32,000 bases of DNA from Nanobdella aerobiophila (GTDB taxonomy: Archaea > Nanobdellota > Nanobdellia > Nanobdellales > Nanobdellaceae): positions 240,001 through 272,000 of the forward strand of contig NZ_AP019769.1 of NCBI RefSeq assembly GCF_023169545.1, written 5' to 3'. A model generated the notes under the pieces. That model was not told the DNA's origin. It saw only the letters and a program-made list of their open reading frames with translations, and did no database searches. Below are positions 2,534 through 28,452 of the stretch, piece after piece (positions within the stretch are counted from its first letter, which is position 1; each line of letters begins with the position of its first letter). A program made the position numbers and the translations under genes.

Positions 2534-2643
2534 TGCGGGGGAGGGGATTTGAACCCCTGGCGGGCCTTAACCCATCGGGTTTCTTACTAATATTATTTAT
2601 TCGGTCTTAAGCCCGACCCCTTTGGCCGCTCGGGCACCCCCGC
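2534..2643 (-). tRNA. tRNA-Leu (anticodon UAA), type II with long variable arm, interrupted by an intron of about 25 nt
   Basis: The reverse complement reads GCGGGGG-TG-CCCGAGCGGCCAAAGGGG-TCGGG-CTTAAG-[ACCGAATAAATAATATTAGTAAGAA]-A-CCCGA-TGGGTTAAGGCCCGCC-AGGGG-TTCAAAT-CCCCT-CCCCCGC-A. The acceptor and T stems are perfect, and the mature length of about 85 nt fits tRNA-Leu. Confidence 0.88.
2581..2605 (-). other. tRNA-Leu intron at the canonical 37/38 position (boundaries +/-1 nt)
   Basis: A 25-nt AT-rich insert separates the anticodon loop CTTAAG from the 3' anticodon-stem strand CCCGA. Removing it restores a 5-bp anticodon stem and a 7-nt loop. Confidence 0.75.
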
Positions 2644-20416: not shown

Positions 20417-21967
20417 TTAAGAAATAGAAATAGAAGGCATAACTCCATTTGGTGGATATGCCATAACTAAAGCATAATTGAAATAGATAGTTTGACCTGT
20501 TGCTCCTAGATCACCAGTAGGTAAACCAAAATAAAACTCGCTACTACCACTCAAAGTATTTACGTTCACAGATAAAGACATTATATTTTGGTTGTTAGTC
20601 GCATTATATAAATATCCATAAACTGTAGATGAAGATAAACCAGGATACACGAATTCTGCAATATATGATCCGTTCTCTATGCTAACATTAGAACTATAAC
20701 CGCACATATATCCGCTACCATTCCAGAATATTATGCCGGGGTTTGGTGGACCCGAACATGGTCCTGCATCATCAGCATCAGTTCCTACCCCCATACCATA
20801 CTCTAAACTAGATGCTATTGATGTATTTACAAGTCCTGCCCAAGACATAGTGTTGTCTGGAGGATTAACAGTTTCTATAAATGATTCAGCAACATATCCC
20901 CCCGGAGGTATTCCTTTATAATATGTCATTGCACTATCAAGTGCCTGAGTTACTAATTCTAGAGTTGATATATTTTCACCATTATATAAGATAGATACAT
21001 TAGAGCTTAATGAGTTTCCTGGTCCCAAGGTAAAATCACTTGTAGGCGTATTTCCATTAAAGTATAGATCAAATACGTCATTACCATTATCATACTCTCC
21101 GTATGTAGAAGATAGTTGAGGAGCTTCACCTACATATGGATAATCTTGTTGATAATAATTAGTACTAGTACTTCCTATTCCCATATAAATTGTAATATTA
21201 CTATTTGCAGGAATTCCATTTGGTAAATTTACCCACCAGACATCACAGAGAACATTACTTATACTTTCTTGTCCTTCATACCATGAATATATATTCGGAG
21301 AACTACCAGAAGTTGTAGTAAAATATGCATTTTGTCCATTGGAATTTATACCTCCGTATAGTATTGGGTTATCTACATATGCAAAATTATTACCTACACT
21401 AGGATTACCATTACATATAGCTATATCTTGTTGGAAAGGTGTTGGAGTACTTATATTTTGAGTATTATATATTGTTATAGGTAAAGGGTTAGTAAAGTAT
21501 CCTACAAGATATCCATTACCTAGATTATTATTATTTCCCACTCCTTGATAATCTAAGGTAATTTGTGGATTATTATTATTTGAAGGATTATATATACATA
21601 AAGAATTATTTATATAACATGTATCTGTACTACCTTGTAATATAGTATTGTTATTATTACATATAATATTATTACCATTTATACTAACAATATTATTATT
21701 TCCATTATTAATAGTTAGTACAGTATTATTATTTATTACTATAGGTACATTACCATTATTATATATATCTATATATAATATATTATTTGAACAATAAGAA
21801 TTAGTAATAGAGAAAGATATATATTGTGATTGTCTACTTACCTGATTACTAGTAGAAGAAGTTAATCCAGAAAATAATCCGGATAAGAATGCATAAGTTA
21901 ATCCTGCAATAGCTACAGTAATAACAATAATTAATATAGTAGCTATAATAGGTGATATAGATCTCAT
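20417..21967 (-). CDS. Surface protein with archaeal type IV pilin-like N-terminus (class III signal peptide) and DUF2341/concanavalin-like ectodomain
   Basis: MRSISPIIATILIIVITVAIAGLTYAFLSG matches the archaeal Pilin_N (DUF1628) helix. NPLPITIYN...FQQDIAI...YFTTTSG...YSWYE...VWWVNLPNGIPANSNITIYMGIG fits the DUF2341 pattern. I prefer the start at 21967, because the 14 upstream codons of the tracked ORF (to 22009) hold a TTTATATA box about 25 nt upstream. Confidence 0.7.
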   Translation of the reverse strand: MRSISPIIATILIIVITVAIAGLTYAFLSGLFSGLTSSTSNQVSRQSQYISFSITNSYCSNNILYIDIYNNGNVPIVINNNTVLTINNGNNNIVSINGNNIICNNNNTILQGSTDTCYINNSLCIYNPSNNNNPQITLDYQGVGNNNNLGNGYLVGYFTNPLPITIYNTQNISTPTPFQQDIAICNGNPSVGNNFAYVDNPILYGGINSNGQNAYFTTTSGSSPNIYSWYEGQESISNVLCDVWWVNLPNGIPANSNITIYMGIGSTSTNYYQQDYPYVGEAPQLSSTYGEYDNGNDVFDLYFNGNTPTSDFTLGPGNSLSSNVSILYNGENISTLELVTQALDSAMTYYKGIPPGGYVAESFIETVNPPDNTMSWAGLVNTSIASSLEYGMGVGTDADDAGPCSGPPNPGIIFWNGSGYMCGYSSNVSIENGSYIAEFVYPGLSSSTVYGYLYNATNNQNIMSLSVNVNTLSGSSEFYFGLPTGDLGATGQTIYFNYALVMAYPPNGVMPSISIS

Positions 21968-22064
21968 AATATAGATATGTTTTAGTAATATATAAACTTT
22001 AATATACATTCGAAATAAAATTAAAAATTGGTTATGAAAAATCTATTATTGAAGTAAATACGAC

Positions 22065-22138
22065 TGGGGTGGGTGGGACTTGAACCCACGACCTCCCGGT
22101 CTTCAGCCGGACGCTCTCCCGGTCTGAGCTACCACCCC
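22065..22138 (-). tRNA. tRNA-Phe (anticodon GAA)
   Basis: The reverse complement folds as GGGGTGG-TA-GCTC-AGACCGGGA-GAGC-G-TCCGG-CTGAAGA-CCGGG-AGGTC-GTGGG-TTCAAGT-CCCAC-CCACCCC-A. All stems are perfect. Confidence 0.92.
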
Positions 22139-22154
22139 GACAAATATTTTATAT

Positions 22155-22952
22155 CTAAATAAGATTTTTAATACTTTTTAATATTTCTTTTAGAAAATCT
22201 TTACGATCCTCTATTGTAGATCTAGCTTTGAGAACTATAAGACCATTATAATATAATTTTGGCTTTATAACTAAATAATTATTATCTCTTTCTACTGAAA
22301 ATTTAATTATATAGTTTTTGTATTGAGTACTATATTTTGATATCTTATTATATAGATTTTTTTGTTCTGGTATTTTTATAAATATATTAGAAATGTCGTA
22401 TGTACATAAAAAATAATCGTTAGACACCTCCTTAATGCATAACTCTTCTAGTTTATTATTACTAAATATTTTATCAATGTATTTTATAGTTTTATTGATT
22501 TGAACTTTTTCTTTGCGTTCTATAGATATATTTCCTAAATTGTATTCAATAGGCTCTATCTCTTTTAGTATGCTATCCAGTTCTTCACTTTTATCTATTA
22601 TGGAAAAATTGTATTTATGTGGTCTAAAAATTCTATTATTATAATATTCGATTAGTAAACTATTGTTCCAAAATTCTATTATTACTTTTGTATAAGACTC
22701 ATTAATAGCATAATCTTCATTTATCTTATATAATTGATATCTATTTTTTTCAATAGTTTCCTTAATGTCCTTTGAAGATTTATAACTAAATTCTATATTA
22801 TATACTAGCATCGGAATTATTGTATTCTTTTCTTCTTCTTGATTAATATATTTAATAGTTCCATATTCACTTATATAGGACCTTAAGATCTCTTTAATAT
22901 CCTTTTCAGATCTTATAATAATGTTGTTAACTACTATCTGATTATAATACAT
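22155..22952 (-). CDS. Hypothetical protein (no recognisable motif)
   Basis: 265-aa ORF with K/E/N/I-rich but non-repetitive composition. There is no competing ORF on the other strand. It lies 16 nt from tRNA-Phe and is divergent from the XPD gene across a 35-bp spacer. Confidence 0.6.
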   Translation of the reverse strand: MYYNQIVVNNIIIRSEKDIKEILRSYISEYGTIKYINQEEEKNTIIPMLVYNIEFSYKSSKDIKETIEKNRYQLYKINEDYAINESYTKVIIEFWNNSLLIEYYNNRIFRPHKYNFSIIDKSEELDSILKEIEPIEYNLGNISIERKEKVQINKTIKYIDKIFSNNKLEELCIKEVSNDYFLCTYDISNIFIKIPEQKNLYNKISKYSTQYKNYIIKFSVERDNNYLVIKPKLYYNGLIVLKARSTIEDRKDFLKEILKSIKNLI

Positions 22953-22987: not shown

Positions 22988-24799
22988 ATGCTTCAAGATT
23001 ATTATCCTATATTAAATAATAGACCATATCAGATAGATGTAATAGAAAAAATAATCAAAGATATTGCAGATAATAAAAGATATATATTAGTTGATTCTCC
23101 AACAGGTTCTGGAAAAACTTTAATATCTTTAATAGTAGCAGATTTATTATCAAAAAAAGATAAGATTACTCATATAGGTGTTAGAACTACAGAAGAAATA
23201 AAAAGATTTTTAGAAGATTCAGAAAAATTGAATATATATTTAAAGATATTTCCAAATAAAAAAAAGACATGTCCATTATTTATAAACTCAAATTTATCTG
23301 GAGAAGAAATAATATGTTCAGATTGTATATATAAGAAAGCTTTATATGAAACAGATATATTATATGATCTATTAAAAAGATATAATTATGATTTTAAAAA
23401 ATTAACAAAGATGGAAGCTATTAAGATAGATAAAAAAGATTTTCCCAAATGCATATATCAGTCATTTAAAAAAATAGATTCAAATATTTATATATCTACT
23501 TATCCATATATATTTAATCAATATCTAAATGAAATACTATCTCTAGATGGAGATCCAGATTTTTTAATTATGGATGAAGCTCATAATTTATTAACTACTA
23601 TATTAAATCCATATTCATTATCTATAAAAAGATATATAGAAAAAAGTTTTAAGATAAGAGGGGAGCAAAATTTATTATTTCAAGATCTTATAAAAGAATT
23701 TGAAATGATAAAAGAATCATTAAATATTTCAGATGAAGATTATTATAATTTAAGAGATAACTTGGTTCAATTTTCAGATCAGTTTTTAAGTTATATTGAA
23801 AATATATTTATTAAAAAATTTAATACGGAAGATATAAATATTATTAAAAGTAGAATAAATAGCAATATTAAAGAAATATATATTGATAAAAAAGATTTAA
23901 ATGAAATATTCGATTTAAATAGGTATTTATTTGATAATTTATCATTTTATTGGGAGACATATAAAAGATATATATCAAAAAATAATTTACAATTACCAAA
24001 GAAAAAATGGAACATAAATAAATTTATAAAATTATATACATATTTATCAGATAAAAATATATTTTGGATAATGAATTCTTTTAAATTAGAAGGATATATA
24101 ACAAAATTTGAAGAGATTATAAAATCATTTGATAATTATAAGTCAATTATATTAATGTCTGGAAGTAATTTTTCTAAAGATAATTTTTCTAAATTATATA
24201 AAGTTGATCCTAATATTATTGATTATATAAAGGTTAATGTAAATTTTGGTAAAAAAGAATATGATCTTATATATAATTTCTCATCTAGATTCTCTTTAAG
24301 AAATGATAAGAGAAATATAGAGAACCTAATATCAGATATAAAGTTAATATCAGAGAATTTTGATAAATATCAATTATATATGTTTCCTTCTTATAGTTTT
24401 ATGTTAAATATATATAATAAATTAGATATAAAAGATATTATATTCTTAGATGATGGTGAAAAATCATTAAATAAAATTTTGAAAACAGATAAAAAGATAG
24501 TATTTACATACTCAAGATCTAGATATATTGAAGGTATACAATTAGTTAAAAATAATCGATCATTATTGAAAGTAATCGTTATTGTAGGAAAACCATATCC
24601 TCCACCACCAAATGCTTCAATACTAATAAATAAAATAATAAAAGATAATAATATAGATTATAGAGACCTTTCTGAAATATTAAAAGATATAAATATAAAA
24701 CAGGTAATAGGTAGAGCAATAAGATATCCAGAAGATACTGTTAAAATATTTTTTATAGATGATAGATATAGAAAAATGGAAATGAAGAGGTATATCTGA
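22988..24799 (+). CDS. xpd: XPD/Rad3 (DinG family) Fe-S DNA helicase
   Basis: RPYQ, Walker A DSPTGSGKT, and four Cys between motifs Ia and II (TCPLF, ICSDC, PKCIY) as in the XPD 4Fe-4S domain. DEAH box MDEAHNL and motif VI QVIGRAIRYPED. Confidence 0.8.
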   Translation: MLQDYYPILNNRPYQIDVIEKIIKDIADNKRYILVDSPTGSGKTLISLIVADLLSKKDKITHIGVRTTEEIKRFLEDSEKLNIYLKIFPNKKKTCPLFINSNLSGEEIICSDCIYKKALYETDILYDLLKRYNYDFKKLTKMEAIKIDKKDFPKCIYQSFKKIDSNIYISTYPYIFNQYLNEILSLDGDPDFLIMDEAHNLLTTILNPYSLSIKRYIEKSFKIRGEQNLLFQDLIKEFEMIKESLNISDEDYYNLRDNLVQFSDQFLSYIENIFIKKFNTEDINIIKSRINSNIKEIYIDKKDLNEIFDLNRYLFDNLSFYWETYKRYISKNNLQLPKKKWNINKFIKLYTYLSDKNIFWIMNSFKLEGYITKFEEIIKSFDNYKSIILMSGSNFSKDNFSKLYKVDPNIIDYIKVNVNFGKKEYDLIYNFSSRFSLRNDKRNIENLISDIKLISENFDKYQLYMFPSYSFMLNIYNKLDIKDIIFLDDGEKSLNKILKTDKKIVFTYSRSRYIEGIQLVKNNRSLLKVIVIVGKPYPPPPNASILINKIIKDNNIDYRDLSEILKDINIKQVIGRAIRYPEDTVKIFFIDDRYRKMEMKRYI

Positions 24800-24802
24800 T
24801 TT

Positions 24803-24851
24803 GGTTATTATCAGTAACCAATTTTATAAATAATTTATAAATTTGTTTCTT
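24803..24851. repeat. Direct repeat copy 1 (43 bp perfect core at 24803-24845; 49 bp with 1 mismatch)
   Basis: GGTTATTATCAGTAACCAATTTTATAAATAATTTATAAATTTG is identical to 25790-25832. It contains the hairpin GGTTA-N7-TAACC, two TTTATAAAT units 11 bp apart, and the palindrome AATTTATAAATT. Confidence 0.95.
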
Positions 24852-25461
24852 TATTGGAACCATTCTTATTGATTTCTTCAATATCTATATTATAGTTATG
24901 TATTTTTTTATATCCATATAATACTGATTTTTCATCAATATGCAAATTAATTTGATATCTTTTACAAAAATCTATTAGATATCTAATAAATTTATCTGAA
25001 TTTTCTAGCGGTATTCTAATTATCAATGGTTTATAAGAAATTATACTACCATTGAACTCTTCTAATATACCTTTTTTATTTCTATCCTTTCTTCCATTTA
25101 AATAATAATAAAATATTTTTCTTTTACTATTATTTGCTTTAATTTCAATTGTCAATTCTTTTTTACTTTTATATTCAAATATATTGTATAATCTTTTATT
25201 TAATTTTACAGAATATCCATCTGATAAAATTTCGAAAAATATAGGACCAAGAGAATATAAATTATCTAACTTTACAGATGTAACATGATATCTTTTTACT
25301 AATTCCTCATATATCTTTTTATCAAATTCTTTAAATATTATTAATATGTCTATATCACTTGGATTCTCTTTTCCTCTAGTAATGGATCCGAATATAATTA
25401 TATCGAATATTTTATTATTTAAATATTCTTTTAATTCTTTATATATATCTTCTAACTTCAT
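24835..25461 (-). CDS. Nucleotidyltransferase (MNT/Pol-beta superfamily, antitoxin-type) with an uncharacterised C-terminal extension of about 110 aa
   Basis: FGSITRGKENPSDIDILIIF is the G-S-x(n)-D-x-D minimal NTase motif. It overlaps the HEPN gene by 23 nt, and its last 5 codons lie inside repeat copy 1. Confidence 0.8.
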   Translation of the reverse strand: MKLEDIYKELKEYLNNKIFDIIIFGSITRGKENPSDIDILIIFKEFDKKIYEELVKRYHVTSVKLDNLYSLGPIFFEILSDGYSVKLNKRLYNIFEYKSKKELTIEIKANNSKRKIFYYYLNGRKDRNKKGILEEFNGSIISYKPLIIRIPLENSDKFIRYLIDFCKRYQINLHIDEKSVLYGYKKIHNYNIDIEEINKNGSNKETNL

Positions 25462-25759
25462 CTGAATATTCTTTTAATAGTTTTGCTTCTTCATCCGATA
25501 ATTTATTATAATACGTTTTTCTATATATTTCAAATATAACCTCATATATATCTAGTAGTCTTTTTATTATATTATCTTCTTTTAAACTTTTTAATACATC
25601 AAATCTTTCATTATGATTTTTTATCCTTATATTATATCTTTTTAAGTATATATCTATCATTAAGAATATTGCAGTTGCGTAGTCTCTTACTGCAGCAGTG
25701 TATCTTTTTTTATTAAAGTTATCATTACCAGATTCTATAAACTCCTCAAATACTTCCAT
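25439..25759 (-). CDS. HEPN domain protein (toxin-type partner of the MNT)
   Basis: 106 aa, all-helical. KKRYTAAVRDYATAIFLMIDIYLKRYNIRIKNHNERFDVLKSL ... YRKTYYNKLSDEEAKLL follows the PF05168-type HEPN pattern. It lies immediately upstream of the NTase gene and is translationally coupled to it. Confidence 0.7.
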   Translation of the reverse strand: MEVFEEFIESGNDNFNKKRYTAAVRDYATAIFLMIDIYLKRYNIRIKNHNERFDVLKSLKEDNIIKRLLDIYEVIFEIYRKTYYNKLSDEEAKLLKEYSDEVRRYI

Positions 25760-25789
25760 TAAAATATTATTAATTATCTCTATTATAAA

Positions 25790-25838
25790 GGTTATTATCA
25801 GTAACCAATTTTATAAATAATTTATAAATTTGGTTCTT
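25790..25838. repeat. Direct repeat copy 2
   Basis: Identical 43-mer at 25790-25832, followed by one mismatch (G vs T) and then TTCTT. It lies 30 nt upstream of the HEPN start and 9 nt beyond the permease stop. Confidence 0.95.
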
Positions 25839-25847
25839 ATATGTAAA

Positions 25848-27026
25848 CTATTCATATCTCAATGCAATCATTGGATCTATTCTTGATGCTTTTATCGCGG
25901 GTATTGTTCCAGATAATATTCCGATAAAGAAGGGGAATAATAAAGAAAATATAATTAATTGAATAGAAATATATGGTTGTAATGCTGTAAAACCCATAGA
26001 TTTAAATATAAATCCAGCAATATTTGACATAATATATCCAAATATTATACCAAATATACCGCCGATTAATCCAATTATTCCAGACTCTAATAAAAATAAA
26101 AATAATACTTCGTTGTTATCCATGCCTAGAGCTTTTAATAAACCAATTTCTTTATATCTCTCTAACACAGATGTGTACATGGTATTTAAAATATTTATTG
26201 CAGATATTAATAAAGATACAGATGCAATTATTAAAGAAAAGATTGTCAATCCACCAACTATACTATTTATTTCACTTTCTAATGATTTTGCAGTTATTAT
26301 TACATAACTTTGTCCTTTTAAACTATTAATATAATCATTTATAGCTATATATGCCAAATTATAATTATATACTATTATCATTAAATAATTATAATTTATA
26401 TTACCAAATATTTTTTTATAATAACCTTCTGGAAATATTATCTCATTATTAAATCCACCACCTGTTTCTTGAAATATACCAATTACCTCACATCTTTGAT
26501 TAAATATATTTATATAATCTCCTACATTTATCTGATCATTTGGATTATTATTACCTTTATATATATTATAACCTATATCTACTTGACATTGATCATTATT
26601 ATTTATTAATGAACCCTGATATATCTGGTATCCATCATACTTTAAATAATTTATGTATTTTGTGTTTATTACATATACAGTTGCTACTCCATAATTATTA
26701 TTATAATATATTTCTGTGGATATAAGATATTCAGGTATAGCAATCTGTACACCCGGTAATCTTTGTATATTTTCTAAAAAAGTATTTGATATAAATCCAT
26801 TTATTGAAGATGAAAAACCTTTACTAACTCCCGGATATATAAATATTACCTTATCACCTAAAGTACTTAATTGATTGGAAATATAATTTTGTAATCCCTG
26901 GGATAAAGATACTAATACAAATATTGTTGCTACACCTATAGTAATACCAATGGAAGTTAATAGTGTCCTTAATTTCTTTTTTGATAAATATTTATATATA
27001 AATAAAAAATAATCATCTATTTTCAT
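25848..27026 (-). CDS. ABC transporter permease, MacB/FtsX family
   Basis: N-terminal TM (LRTLLTSIGITIGVATIFVLVS), a large extracytoplasmic domain, and a C-terminal FtsX module (EIGLLKALGMDNNEVLFLFLLESGIIGLIGG). Confidence 0.85.
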   Translation of the reverse strand: MKIDDYFLFIYKYLSKKKLRTLLTSIGITIGVATIFVLVSLSQGLQNYISNQLSTLGDKVIFIYPGVSKGFSSSINGFISNTFLENIQRLPGVQIAIPEYLISTEIYYNNNYGVATVYVINTKYINYLKYDGYQIYQGSLINNNDQCQVDIGYNIYKGNNNPNDQINVGDYINIFNQRCEVIGIFQETGGGFNNEIIFPEGYYKKIFGNINYNYLMIIVYNYNLAYIAINDYINSLKGQSYVIITAKSLESEINSIVGGLTIFSLIIASVSLLISAINILNTMYTSVLERYKEIGLLKALGMDNNEVLFLFLLESGIIGLIGGIFGIIFGYIMSNIAGFIFKSMGFTALQPYISIQLIIFSLLFPFFIGILSGTIPAIKASRIDPMIALRYE

Positions 27027-28452
27027 GTTTCTTTCTTCTATAGATATAGTATGCTATTATAATAATTATAACTGATACTATTATAAATAAGAAGCTACCA
27101 TTATTATTTGTATATTTTATATTTAAATTATATCCAATATCTTTTAATGGTATATTGTATCTTAATACATAATAATTTCCATATATATCCGAATAATATA
27201 CTTTTACAATAATTGTAGAATTATATAAATAAGAGGGATTTTCAGATGATATAGTATAAACTACAGAATTTGAATTTCCAGGATCTAATTCTCCGATATA
27301 GCCTTGATCTGGTGTTATTATACAATTATTTGAACAATAAACATCCATATACATATTATAAGCAGGAGCATATCCATAATTAAATATATTAAATGTTATT
27401 GTCCCATCATTATAAGAACCTGATATAGTTATATTTGGATATGTATTAATGTTTTCTATAATATTCCCACTCAAATTATTTAATATCGAATTAGAATAAT
27501 ATTGAATTTGAAATGGTATACTTATTGTTCCATATACATTATTTGGTACTACTATAGTTAATGGTATATATAAATATTGTCCAGGTTTTATTGAATTAAT
27601 GTATATATTATTATTTTCTATAGATATGTTAGACCCTTCAAAATTTATAGCAATATCATTTATAGTAGAATTTGTGGGATTATATATTGTTAGATTTATT
27701 ATATTATTTCCAATATTTAAATAAGAGATATTATATAATAATTCTATTCTATTATTTGAGTTTATTATCGGTACATTTACTGATGTAAAATAATTTCCTA
27801 TATTTCCTAAACTATCTTCATATTGTATATTTATAGGTATTGTACAATAATTGTCTGCATAATTCGGGGGGATAATTAATTGAAAGTTTAATAATTGAGA
27901 ACTATTTAAATTGTTTAAATAAAATGCGGTTGGTTGAAGTGCACATTCAGTAGAATTTGATTCTATTAATACATTATTTATATTACCGCCATTATTTGTA
28001 ATATTAAGAGTTATATTTGATATAGCACCATAGTAATTATTATTATAATATATATTATTTATTGTTATATATGGTAAATTTTGTATTATTATTGGATATA
28101 TTTGAGAAGTGTAACTTACACCATTATTATTTACATAAGAACCATTTATAACAATATCATATGCTCCTGGATTACAAGAGTCATAAACATTTAAATATGT
28201 ACAATAATTATTATTTTCCTCTAAATAGGGTATATATACACTTGAAGTATTTGAATATAGACAATATGGATAATATATATTTAATGTAATTAAGTTGTCT
28301 GTAGATTGATCATTATTCAATATACAAACCTCTAAATTAATGTTATTGTTTGTATTCACAATATTTGGAGATATTTTTGTTATATTAATTTGTATAGAAA
28401 ATATATTATATGACATTAACAACAGAAGTAATATATATAGCAACTTTTTCAT
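27013..28452 (-). CDS. Secreted, C-terminally anchored COG1361/CARDB-like surface protein (paralog of 15836-17380)
   Basis: Signal-like MKKLLYILLLLLMSYNIFS. Repeated CARDB-type strands (NITLNITNNGGNINNVLIES, ITFNIFNYGYAPAYNMYMDVY). About 14 sequons. C-terminal TM plus RRKKHENR. It overlaps the permease gene by 14 nt. Confidence 0.7.
   Translation of the reverse strand: MKKLLYILLLLLMSYNIFSIQINITKISPNIVNTNNNINLEVCILNNDQSTDNLITLNIYYPYCLYSNTSSVYIPYLEENNNYCTYLNVYDSCNPGAYDIVINGSYVNNNGVSYTSQIYPIIIQNLPYITINNIYYNNNYYGAISNITLNITNNGGNINNVLIESNSTECALQPTAFYLNNLNSSQLLNFQLIIPPNYADNYCTIPINIQYEDSLGNIGNYFTSVNVPIINSNNRIELLYNISYLNIGNNIINLTIYNPTNSTINDIAINFEGSNISIENNNIYINSIKPGQYLYIPLTIVVPNNVYGTISIPFQIQYYSNSILNNLSGNIIENINTYPNITISGSYNDGTITFNIFNYGYAPAYNMYMDVYCSNNCIITPDQGYIGELDPGNSNSVVYTISSENPSYLYNSTIIVKVYYSDIYGNYYVLRYNIPLKDIGYNLNIKYTNNNGSFLFIIVSVIIIIIAYYIYRRKKHENR

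Follow-up and report, generated by a model that had tools for sequence, protein, structure and literature searches.

A 43-bp direct repeat brackets a two-gene HEPN-MNT-like cassette in a 32,000-nt stretch of the Nanobdella aerobiophila genome (contig NZ_AP019769.1, AP019769; genome size 668,961 bp), and both copies of this repeat are inherited with the cassette and not derived from the site that it occupies between an XPD helicase gene and an ABC-transporter permease gene. The whole 32,000-nt stretch is referred to here as the window. Most likely, the repeat serves as an operator and promoter through which the cassette regulates itself, a reading that draws on the analogy with the Shewanella MNT antitoxin, which acts on palindromes in its own promoter. 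In its full form, to which we assign a probability of roughly 0.55, this reading holds that the repeat is the palindromic upstream control module of a Nanopusillaceae HEPN-MNT operon resembling type VII toxin-antitoxin systems, and that a second copy of the module stands at the 3' end of the operon.

The repeat pair and the two sites of the cassette

Sequence search recovered the 43-mer (GGTTATTATCAGTAACCAATTTTATAAATAATTTATAAATTTG) in two perfect copies, at positions 24803-24845 and 25790-25832 with a spacing of 987 bp, and identity was found to extend to 49 nt (48/49) with T24846 versus G25833 as the sole mismatch; an earlier, sequence-only reading of the window had reported the same coordinates, spacing and extension. 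No third copy with up to three mismatches was detected in the 32-kb window (0 in 100 shuffles). The 43-bp repeat is real and non-random. An assembly artefact is unlikely, as the genome is finished and the unitigs of a separate assembly are consistent with a genuine repeat: in a k=31 assembly of run DRR261008, unitigs L001 and L002 end inside the repeat, on the XPD side and on the cassette side, as expected where a repeat of 31 bp or more is truly present. These k=31 unitigs alone do not distinguish the integrated form from a circle plus an empty site.

The repeated element consists of a 35-37-bp palindrome, in which the feet AGAACC and GGTTCT enclose two head-to-head TATA-like boxes, and of an adjoining GGTTA-N7-TAACC dyad. 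Because the core is palindromic (25803-25835), the copies form inverted repeats in addition to direct ones, and the view of the sequence-only reading that terminal inverted repeats are missing was incorrect; by repeat finding, an inverted pair was detected with 68-nt arms and 72% complementarity. The gene layout (Table 1) was confirmed as first described, with XPD ending at 24799, 3 nt from copy 1, with HEPN-like and MNT genes that overlap by 23 nt, and with a permease stop codon (25848-25850) situated 9 nt beyond the 49-mer and 15 nt beyond the 43-mer. The part of the MNT gene lying in copy 1 had been given as the last five codons and the stop, and amounts instead to the stop plus 2 2/3 codons in the 43-mer and the stop plus 4 2/3 codons in the 49-mer. 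The composition of the cassette is unremarkable, with a G+C content like that of the genome (the window has ~23% G+C).

XPD homologues were found by homologue search in Nanopusillaceae only. The closest relatives with usable context are AP031373.1 (L003, XPD 73% identical) and the metagenome-assembled genome (MAG) GCA_049974095.1 (L005, XPD 70% identical), together with a JGI contig from the same population as L005 (L006). In L003 and L005/L006, XPD and the same permease are convergent and their stop codons stand back to back, TAA followed at once by TTA, with no spacer; neither a copy nor a half-copy of the repeat was found at this junction in L003 and L005. Since the stops of the relatives abut without any repeat, all of the 1,048 bp from 24800 to 25847, both repeats included, are extra DNA in N. 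aerobiophila compared to L003/L005, and this 1,048-bp unit is accessory and lineage-specific at the XPD-permease junction. The sequence-only reading had predicted an empty site composed of XPD, one repeat and the permease, with a spacer of 55-61 bp, and the relatives show no such arrangement. The XPD proteins of the two empty-site relatives are 89% identical to each other, and as these relatives represent one sister lineage, parsimony alone cannot polarize insertion versus deletion; the perfectly abutting junction favors insertion. The empty-site comparison is limited to relatives at 70-73% XPD identity, from which a closer relative could differ, and more distant genomes carry different genes downstream of XPD.

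A word-indexed homologue search with MNT returned 12 relatives, and the named sources of these are all Nanopusillaceae or Nanoarchaeota. The closest, at 58-61% amino acid identity, are encoded on contigs L012, L018, L019 and L020 (nearest cassette ~72% identical in nucleotide sequence), of which L012 shares its MAG with the empty site L005. On L012 and L018 the order is DUF123, tRNA-Cys, element, HEPN, MNT, element and CTP synthase; L019 and L020 have the same order on contigs that end short of CTP synthase. When the window repeat was compared by BLAST to all fetched loci, matches of up to 35/36 were obtained on these four contigs only, where one copy of the element precedes HEPN and the other spans the MNT stop codon, at a spacing of 956-1,032 bp. 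Its core in these contigs, AGAACC-WW-ATTTATAAAT-W-ATTTATAAA-WW-TGGTTCT, is palindromic, its arms reaching 18 nt at most, and the two L012 copies differ at 4/35 positions. Since both copies flank an orthologous cassette elsewhere and are diverged there, the repeats are old parts of the cassette and not a fresh target duplication. The unit has thus moved at least once, with both copies travelling along.

These findings revise the sequence-only reading, which had interpreted the repeat as the footprint of a recent insertion of a mobile cassette. That the cassette is accessory at the junction and has another site in Nanopusillaceae agrees with insertion; the repeat is not the insertion footprint, be it as target duplication or att core, as both copies flank the orthologue at the tRNA-Cys/CTP-synthase site. 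Nor is the event evidently recent, given that the nearest cassette is only 61% identical in amino acid and 72% in nucleotide sequence and that the cassette matches the genome in G+C content.

Two further observations concern the second site. A tRNA-Cys(GCA) is located at L012 1236-1310, and likewise in L018, L019 and L020, with the cassette starting 16-17 nt downstream; no overlap of the repeat with this tRNA was found in the L012-type contigs. In L020 (~1400-1507), the sequence past the 3' palindrome is an exact reverse complement of the tRNA-Cys flank (22/22), which is probably, and most simply, an assembly fold-back through the palindrome, with a real rearrangement as the other possibility.

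Promoter-like architecture and conservation of the repeat copies

Most genes of the window that are first in their operon have a TATA-like hexamer beginning 29-30 nt before the ATG, as is characteristic of leaderless transcripts. The corresponding -30 TATA box of the HEPN-like gene directly adjoins the last base of repeat copy 2, and upstream of this box follow, in order, the GGTTA-N7-TAACC dyad, the double-TATA palindrome and a degenerate outer dyad. The proposal of the sequence-only reading that the repeat carries promoter-like sequence was thus well founded.

A relaxed form of this layout, xAAC-N23-29-GTTx around a TATA-like stretch, was detected upstream of HEPN in 7/7 regions examined, which represent four independent lineages (the window/L012 clade, L013, L015 and the Thermococcus plasmid pTBMP1, L021), compared to a background of 4-10% per random 110-nt window. 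The full shared arrangement of GTTx..xAAC, ~25 nt with a TATA-like stretch and again GTTx..xAAC is present in L013, L015 and L021. L013 is a more distant family member of AP031373.1. The pTBMP1 pair (L021 2053-3049, Thermococcus barophilus) is homologous to that of the window (hhalign 97% for the HEPN-like protein; MNT 31% identical), and its TATA box is bracketed by an inverted repeat with 18-nt arms (TCATGAGAACAAAAAGCC / GGTTTATTGTTCTCATGA) and GAGAAC/GTTCTC feet. This distant pair is the sole plasmid homologue obtained; it lacks the 3' copy, and no MNT relative was found in phage records or IMG/VR.

In this architecture, each copy combines the double-TATA palindrome and its AGAACC/GGTTCT feet with one to two short dyads of the form GGTT(A/C)-N5-8-(T/G)AACC, and the inner dyad of the 5' copy abuts the -30 TATA box of a predicted leaderless HEPN-MNT transcript. 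A protein or complex encoded by the cassette may bind the GGTT/AACC dyads and thereby repress the promoter. The model for this step is Shewanella, in which the MNT promoter has two palindromes and is bound by the MNT antitoxin itself (PMC4621449). The 3' copy may act as an auxiliary operator cluster, either by forming a repression loop with the 5' copy or by blocking transcription from the convergent neighbor; at either site, the cassette is followed by a convergent gene that nearly touches it.

Conservation of the two copies was compared between the window and L012, L019 and L020. The 5' palindrome core was found to be 86-94% identical and the 3' palindrome core 89-94% identical, with the coding sequence at 66-75% and third codon positions (versus L012 only) at 61%. 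The 3' copy of L012 is nearer to the window copies than to the 5' copy of L012 itself, and thus gene conversion alone is insufficient to account for its upkeep; this suggests, at the level of sequence, that the 3' copy is itself under direct selection. Coding constraint is an unlikely cause of the 3'-copy conservation, since residues 189-208 of MNT, the tail for which the 3' palindrome codes, are predicted to be disordered and vary from clade to clade. The two N. aerobiophila copies remain identical for a further 12 nt outside the palindrome, a stretch that covers the inner dyad and stops at the TATA box, and L012-type 3' copies have no inner-dyad part. Taken together, these two features suggest that gene conversion or re-duplication has acted on the copies within the N. 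aerobiophila lineage, from which the 48/49 identity would stem. The L018 3' copy has a patch, ATATGGTTCTCAA, in common with its own 5' copy that is missing in L012. Across the ~150 kb of loci, few palindromes have arms of 13 nt or more. L012 has just two, both of them cassette ends, and the window has, besides the cassette ends, one other, inside the MNT gene; numbers elsewhere match chance expectation.

Further copies were searched for at larger scale. A 20-mer from the repeat had no match in GTDB species genomes or IMG/VR, and an XPD-based locus search in GTDB found nothing; the source genome is evidently not among the GTDB genomes in either case. A degenerate palindrome pattern had no match in IMG/VR. 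In JGI metagenomes it had one match, a chance hit inside a bacterial gene, and this negative is weak since the collection excludes L018 and L020, known carriers of the element. Neither further copies of the repeat nor a transposase were found in ~43 kb of N. aerobiophila sequence, and further copies of the element were likewise not found in the window, in the ~150 kb of related loci or in IMG/VR.

The HEPN-MNT-like pair and its neighborhood

The XPD, MNT and HEPN-like proteins of the window are 100% identical to N. aerobiophila proteins, and 735/736 genes are expressed according to the published N. aerobiophila paper. MNT (minimal nucleotidyltransferase) matches Pfam NTP_transf_2 at 33 bits (cut-off 21), and its catalytic motif, FGSITRGKENPSDIDIL of the GSx(10)DxD type, is invariant across the 12 homologues. 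In an AlphaFold2 model of MNT (predicted local distance difference test score, pLDDT, 87), the N-terminal domain resembles MntA and is joined to an extra ferredoxin-like C-terminal domain; the best PDB matches by Foldseek were the MntA antitoxins 6m6u, 7bxo and 7aer, at borderline E-values of 1e-3 to 4e-3. A HMMER scan with MNT returned 231 clusters at E <= 1e-10, and as the best-scoring of these are mostly of similar length, the two-domain MNT is an established family.

The HEPN-like partner was characterized by family comparison. The window protein scores 18 bits against PF05168, with a cut-off of 22, and a PF05168 match was obtained for four of the five family members (best E-value 7.9e-8). 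A single-sequence model was all-helical (pLDDT 69) with no significant fold match, and the homologue search with this protein returned the query alone. The partners have a conserved motif, (Y/H)N(I/V)x(I/V)KxHx(E/D)R, which reads KNHAERF in pTBMP1; in the alignment, no conserved arginine was found 4-6 residues ahead of the histidine and no tyrosine at +2. The pair is HEPN-MNT-like in that it resembles a type VII system yet, by its sequence, fails one defining feature, and we use this label and do not assign it to the family because Rx4-6H is missing.

Compared to the type VII HEPN-MNT systems of Shewanella oneidensis (MntA/HpeT, SO_3165/SO_3166) and Aphanizomenon flos-aquae, the window pair has in common the small GS...DxD nucleotidyltransferase with an MntA-like structure, the helical, tentatively PF05168-type partner and the overlapping genes of a bicistronic operon with promoter palindromes, the binding of which by MNT is known in Shewanella (PMC4621449). 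In every family member covered here, dyads and a palindrome immediately precede the -30 TATA box. By contrast, HEPN is the first gene of the window cassette, the partner has KNHxERF in place of Rx4-6H and a nearby tyrosine, MNT has its additional ferredoxin-like domain, and a second operator/TATA module stands at the 3' end. In type VII systems, Rx4-6H is an RNase motif, the tyrosine is AMPylated, and MNT neutralizes the toxic HEPN by this AMPylation. The pTBMP1 pair (TERMP_RS10980/RS10975) is similar in that a 111-aa partner overlaps a 210-aa MNT, an inverted repeat with 18-nt arms surrounds an upstream TATA box and another toxin-antitoxin pair, ParD/PIN, adjoins it; it differs by its missing 3' palindrome copy, its Shine-Dalgarno leader, its plasmid location and an MNT of only 31% identity. 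A paralogous pair of N. aerobiophila is located in a type I cas operon (L015 7040-7988, a Logan contig). It consists of a 112-aa HEPN-like protein and a 206-aa MNT (MJ1_0576, 46% identical to the window MNT), placed between a 451-aa gene that has no Pfam match and follows a DevR/Cas7 gene, and cas4.

Table 1. Features of the cassette and its flanks in the window (positions in nt from the first base of the window).
Feature	Position	Strand	Description and basis
XPD/Rad3-family helicase, left flank (MJ1_0305 by inference)	22988..24799	+	Pfam ResIII, Helicase_C_2, DEAD_2
Repeat copy 1 (3' copy, palD)	24803..24851	-	43-mer at 24803-24845; contains MNT stop and last codons
Dyad O2 of 3' copy	24803..24819	-	GGTTA-N7-TAACC, flanks lengthen to TTGGTTA/TAACCAA; sequence and DNA fold
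Double-TATA palindrome, 3' copy	24816..24848	.	One foot mutated, + strand GTTT versus GGTT in 5' copy
MNT minimal nucleotidyltransferase	24835..25461	-	GS...DIDIL motif, ferredoxin-like C-terminal domain; Pfam, alignment, AlphaFold2 model
Degenerate dyad O1, 3' copy	24845..24861	-	GGTTCCAATAAAGAAAC, within MNT-tail codons; alignment to L019/L020 3' copies
HEPN-like partner (MJ1_0307)	25439..25759	-	All-helical; KNHxERF motif, without Rx4-6H
Core TATA box TTTATAAT	25782..25789	-	-30..-23 of HEPN ATG, directly outside copy 2
Repeat copy 2 (5' copy, palU)	25790..25838	-	43-mer at 25790-25832; dyad O2 and double-TATA palindrome
Dyad O2 of 5' copy	25790-25806	-	GGTTA-N7-TAACC
Double-TATA palindrome, 5' copy	25803-25835	-	16-nt arms, 1 mismatch
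Degenerate outer dyad O1, 5' copy	25832..25848	-	Extends to permease stop codon; alignment with L012-type GTTCTTTAAAGAAC
ABC-transporter permease (FtsX/MacB_PCD), right flank	25848..27026	-	Pfam; syntenic with L003 and L005

Upstream of XPD, the window (22065-22952) carries a tRNA-Phe and a 265-aa open reading frame without Pfam match, and in AP031373.1 a VapB/PIN toxin-antitoxin pair directly adjoins XPD on the same side (L003 9238-9857); the XPD neighborhood seems to gather accessory modules. Large Asn-rich surface-type proteins flank the region at 20417-22009 (-) and 27013-28452 (-), of which one has an archaeal type IV pilin N-terminus and the other is MJ1_0309, an S-layer-domain protein in the literature. 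At 2534-2643 (-), adjoining tRNA-Ile (2405-2477), Rfam reports a tRNA of 110 nt (45.8 bits) that presumably contains an intron and was not reported by ARAGORN. In L005 (18297-18332), a perfect 36-bp palindrome with two head-to-head TATA-like boxes, ATAATAAATATATAAAAGCTTTTATATATTTATTTT, is located between divergent genes, which shows that symmetric double-TATA promoters exist elsewhere in these genomes.

Alternative roles of the palindromes and biological meaning

The operator reading has several points against it. The main weakness is that no DNA-binding domain was recognized in MNT or the HEPN-like protein, and we know of no toxin-antitoxin system in which a 3' operator copy is a feature of regulation. 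The shared dyad/TATA layout was defined post hoc with the data already seen, and is supportive and not conclusive; the 3' element copy was not found in L013, L015 or pTBMP1, being present only in the window/L012 clade. The palindromes also stand at the very ends of the DNA common to the two sites, as expected of recombination sites, and copies may exist in N. aerobiophila beyond the ~43 kb of sequence covered.

In the main rival reading, the palindromes would be primarily recombination sites, at the termini of a mobile cassette that is not autonomous and depends on a recombinase or transposase acting in trans from another locus; variants of this role include attC-like or IS200/IS605- and PATE-like (palindrome-associated transposable element) ends, an element exploiting Xer/dif, or release of the unit by host enzymes that cut cruciforms. 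We regard this as unlikely, while granting it more weight than any other alternative. The element is found at both ends of the shared DNA at two unrelated insertion sites, within 15 nt of the neighbors; the cassette has no recombinase of its own, the palindromic core turns the copies into direct and inverted repeats, 3' copies tend to be more perfect palindromes (perfect 18-nt arms in L012) and contig L020 folds back through the palindrome. On the other hand, a Pfam scan of the 34 open reading frames of the 32-kb window found no integrase or transposase, in agreement with the sequence-only reading, nor was one found among the called genes of any fetched related locus. The empty sites retain no copy or half-copy, neither an attC core (GTTRRRY) nor an obvious target-site duplication was seen, and neither solo copies nor copies around a different cargo turned up in ~150 kb of related loci, with none in IMG/VR. 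Family members without a 3' copy, moreover, have the dyad/TATA layout upstream only, which points to a regulatory origin.

The cassette was also compared with known mobile units. Integron cassettes with attC sites are likewise small, often carry toxin-antitoxin genes, have imperfect palindromes in the same orientation at their borders and encode no internal recombinase. They differ in their GTTRRRY/RYYYAAC cores (the feet here are AGAACC/GGTTCT, with GTT followed by pyrimidines) and in the IntI integrase, of which none was found in the available sequence; the window cassette has its own promoter, its element is conserved in sequence and not just in structure, and the empty sites have no attI- or attC-like site. 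An integron attC was rejected on the missing core motifs. The ends of IS200/IS605 elements, PATEs and repetitive extragenic palindromic (REP) elements resemble the pair in their direct-orientation palindromes at both ends, lack of target-site duplication and, putatively for the cassette, mobilization in trans; the cassette differs in that no Y1 transposase was detected in the sequence examined, there is no sign of multiple copies and the palindromes coincide with promoter/operator. With SSV-type and pNOB8-type archaeal att elements it shares ~40-50-bp direct repeats flanking an insert and, for the L012-type cassette, a position 16-17 nt past a tRNA, but no integrase was found, the repeat is outside the tRNA and the empty site has no att copy. 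Other candidate origins were rejected. Duplication of a CRISPR/Cas1-type repeat is opposed by the lack of array-like repeats in the window or cas locus and by the diverged copies in other species. A viral or plasmid origin is opposed by the lack of any MNT relative in phage records or IMG/VR, with one distant plasmid homologue only. A tRNA fragment or split tRNA was considered as the hairpin loop of the repeat reads CTGATAA on the minus strand, just like the anticodon loop of the nearby tRNA-Ile(GAU). Its stems are unlike those of the tRNA, L012-type copies have another loop (CTCAAGAT) and Rfam and ARAGORN are silent there, so we judge this likeness a coincidence.

The 3' copy could also be a functionless leftover, of a tandem duplication or of a circular or concatemeric insertion longer than one unit, that gene conversion has kept similar. 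This is improbable, and rather more so than a role in recombination. It would fit the 48/49 identity in N. aerobiophila, which includes 12 nt outside the palindrome, the presence in the L018 3' copy of the patch of its own 5' copy and the manner in which the MNT reading frame just runs into the element to end in a disordered tail; it does not fit a 3' copy held at 89-94% across lineages with coding sequence at 66-75%, nor the L012 3' copy, the affinity of which to the window copies is the opposite of what upkeep by conversion only predicts. A role of the element as an RNA or single-stranded-DNA hairpin, such as a 3' stabilizer or terminator of the mRNA or a 5' structure in a longer transcript, has a low probability. 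The palindromes do fold far beyond shuffles (z = -2.7 to -6.4, as DNA at 37°C), and the MNT stop codon is within the stem of the 3' copy. However, the predicted RNA hairpins of the window copies reach only -1 to -2 kcal/mol at 65°C and 0 at 75°C (overall ~0 to -2 kcal/mol for N. aerobiophila at 65-75°C), with a growth optimum of 65°C (bioRxiv 10.1101/2023.10.27.564410). The foot of the window 3' copy is mutated (GAAAC), the conserved sequence has no compensatory changes and the repeat region has no Rfam match. The instability at 65°C, the lack of compensatory changes and the lack of an Rfam match favor a double-stranded protein site over a nucleic-acid structure. Archaeal termination, moreover, relies on T runs and not on hairpins. 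The least probable account, at the margin of what we would consider, is that of the sequence-only reading, in which an ancestral XPD-permease spacer held one 43-mer that was duplicated when a circular cassette integrated. The perfect direct repeats that bracket the cassette are compatible with it, as is the k=31 unitig graph, which would also accommodate an empty site plus a circle. The relatives have neither spacer nor repeat at the junction, the same element flanks the cassette at another locus in other species with diverged copies and no integrase was found.

It is conceivable, if doubtful, that operator palindromes double as the ends of a recombinase-less cassette that moves between sites in the transposase-poor Nanoarchaeota. 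The movers proposed for such a cassette, at the same tentative level, are a Xer-like recombinase, a Holliday-junction resolvase, Mre11-Rad50 acting on cruciforms, or palindrome recombination. If true, this would provide an archaeal counterpart of integron cassettes and Xer-exploiting elements, with regulation and recombination combined in one sequence.

HEPN-MNT pairs are among the most abundant toxin-antitoxin and defense modules of archaea. To our knowledge, little is known of how archaeal HEPN-MNT pairs are regulated or of how they spread in tiny symbiont genomes that have no obvious mobile-element machinery. The cassette of N. aerobiophila offers a compact, testable model in a cultivated organism, in which the predicted operator consists of GGTT/AACC dyads around TATA boxes and appears, from sequence, to be conserved from a Thermococcus plasmid to Nanopusillaceae. 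The unusual part is the second copy at the 3' end, and interest lies there and in the movement of the cassette without evident mobile-element enzymes. If the 3' copy does not loop DNA, insulate the operon or mediate movement, the cassette would be a commonplace autoregulated gene pair whose promoter region happens to be duplicated. By contrast, if it does any of these, it would represent a new design principle for self-contained accessory modules.

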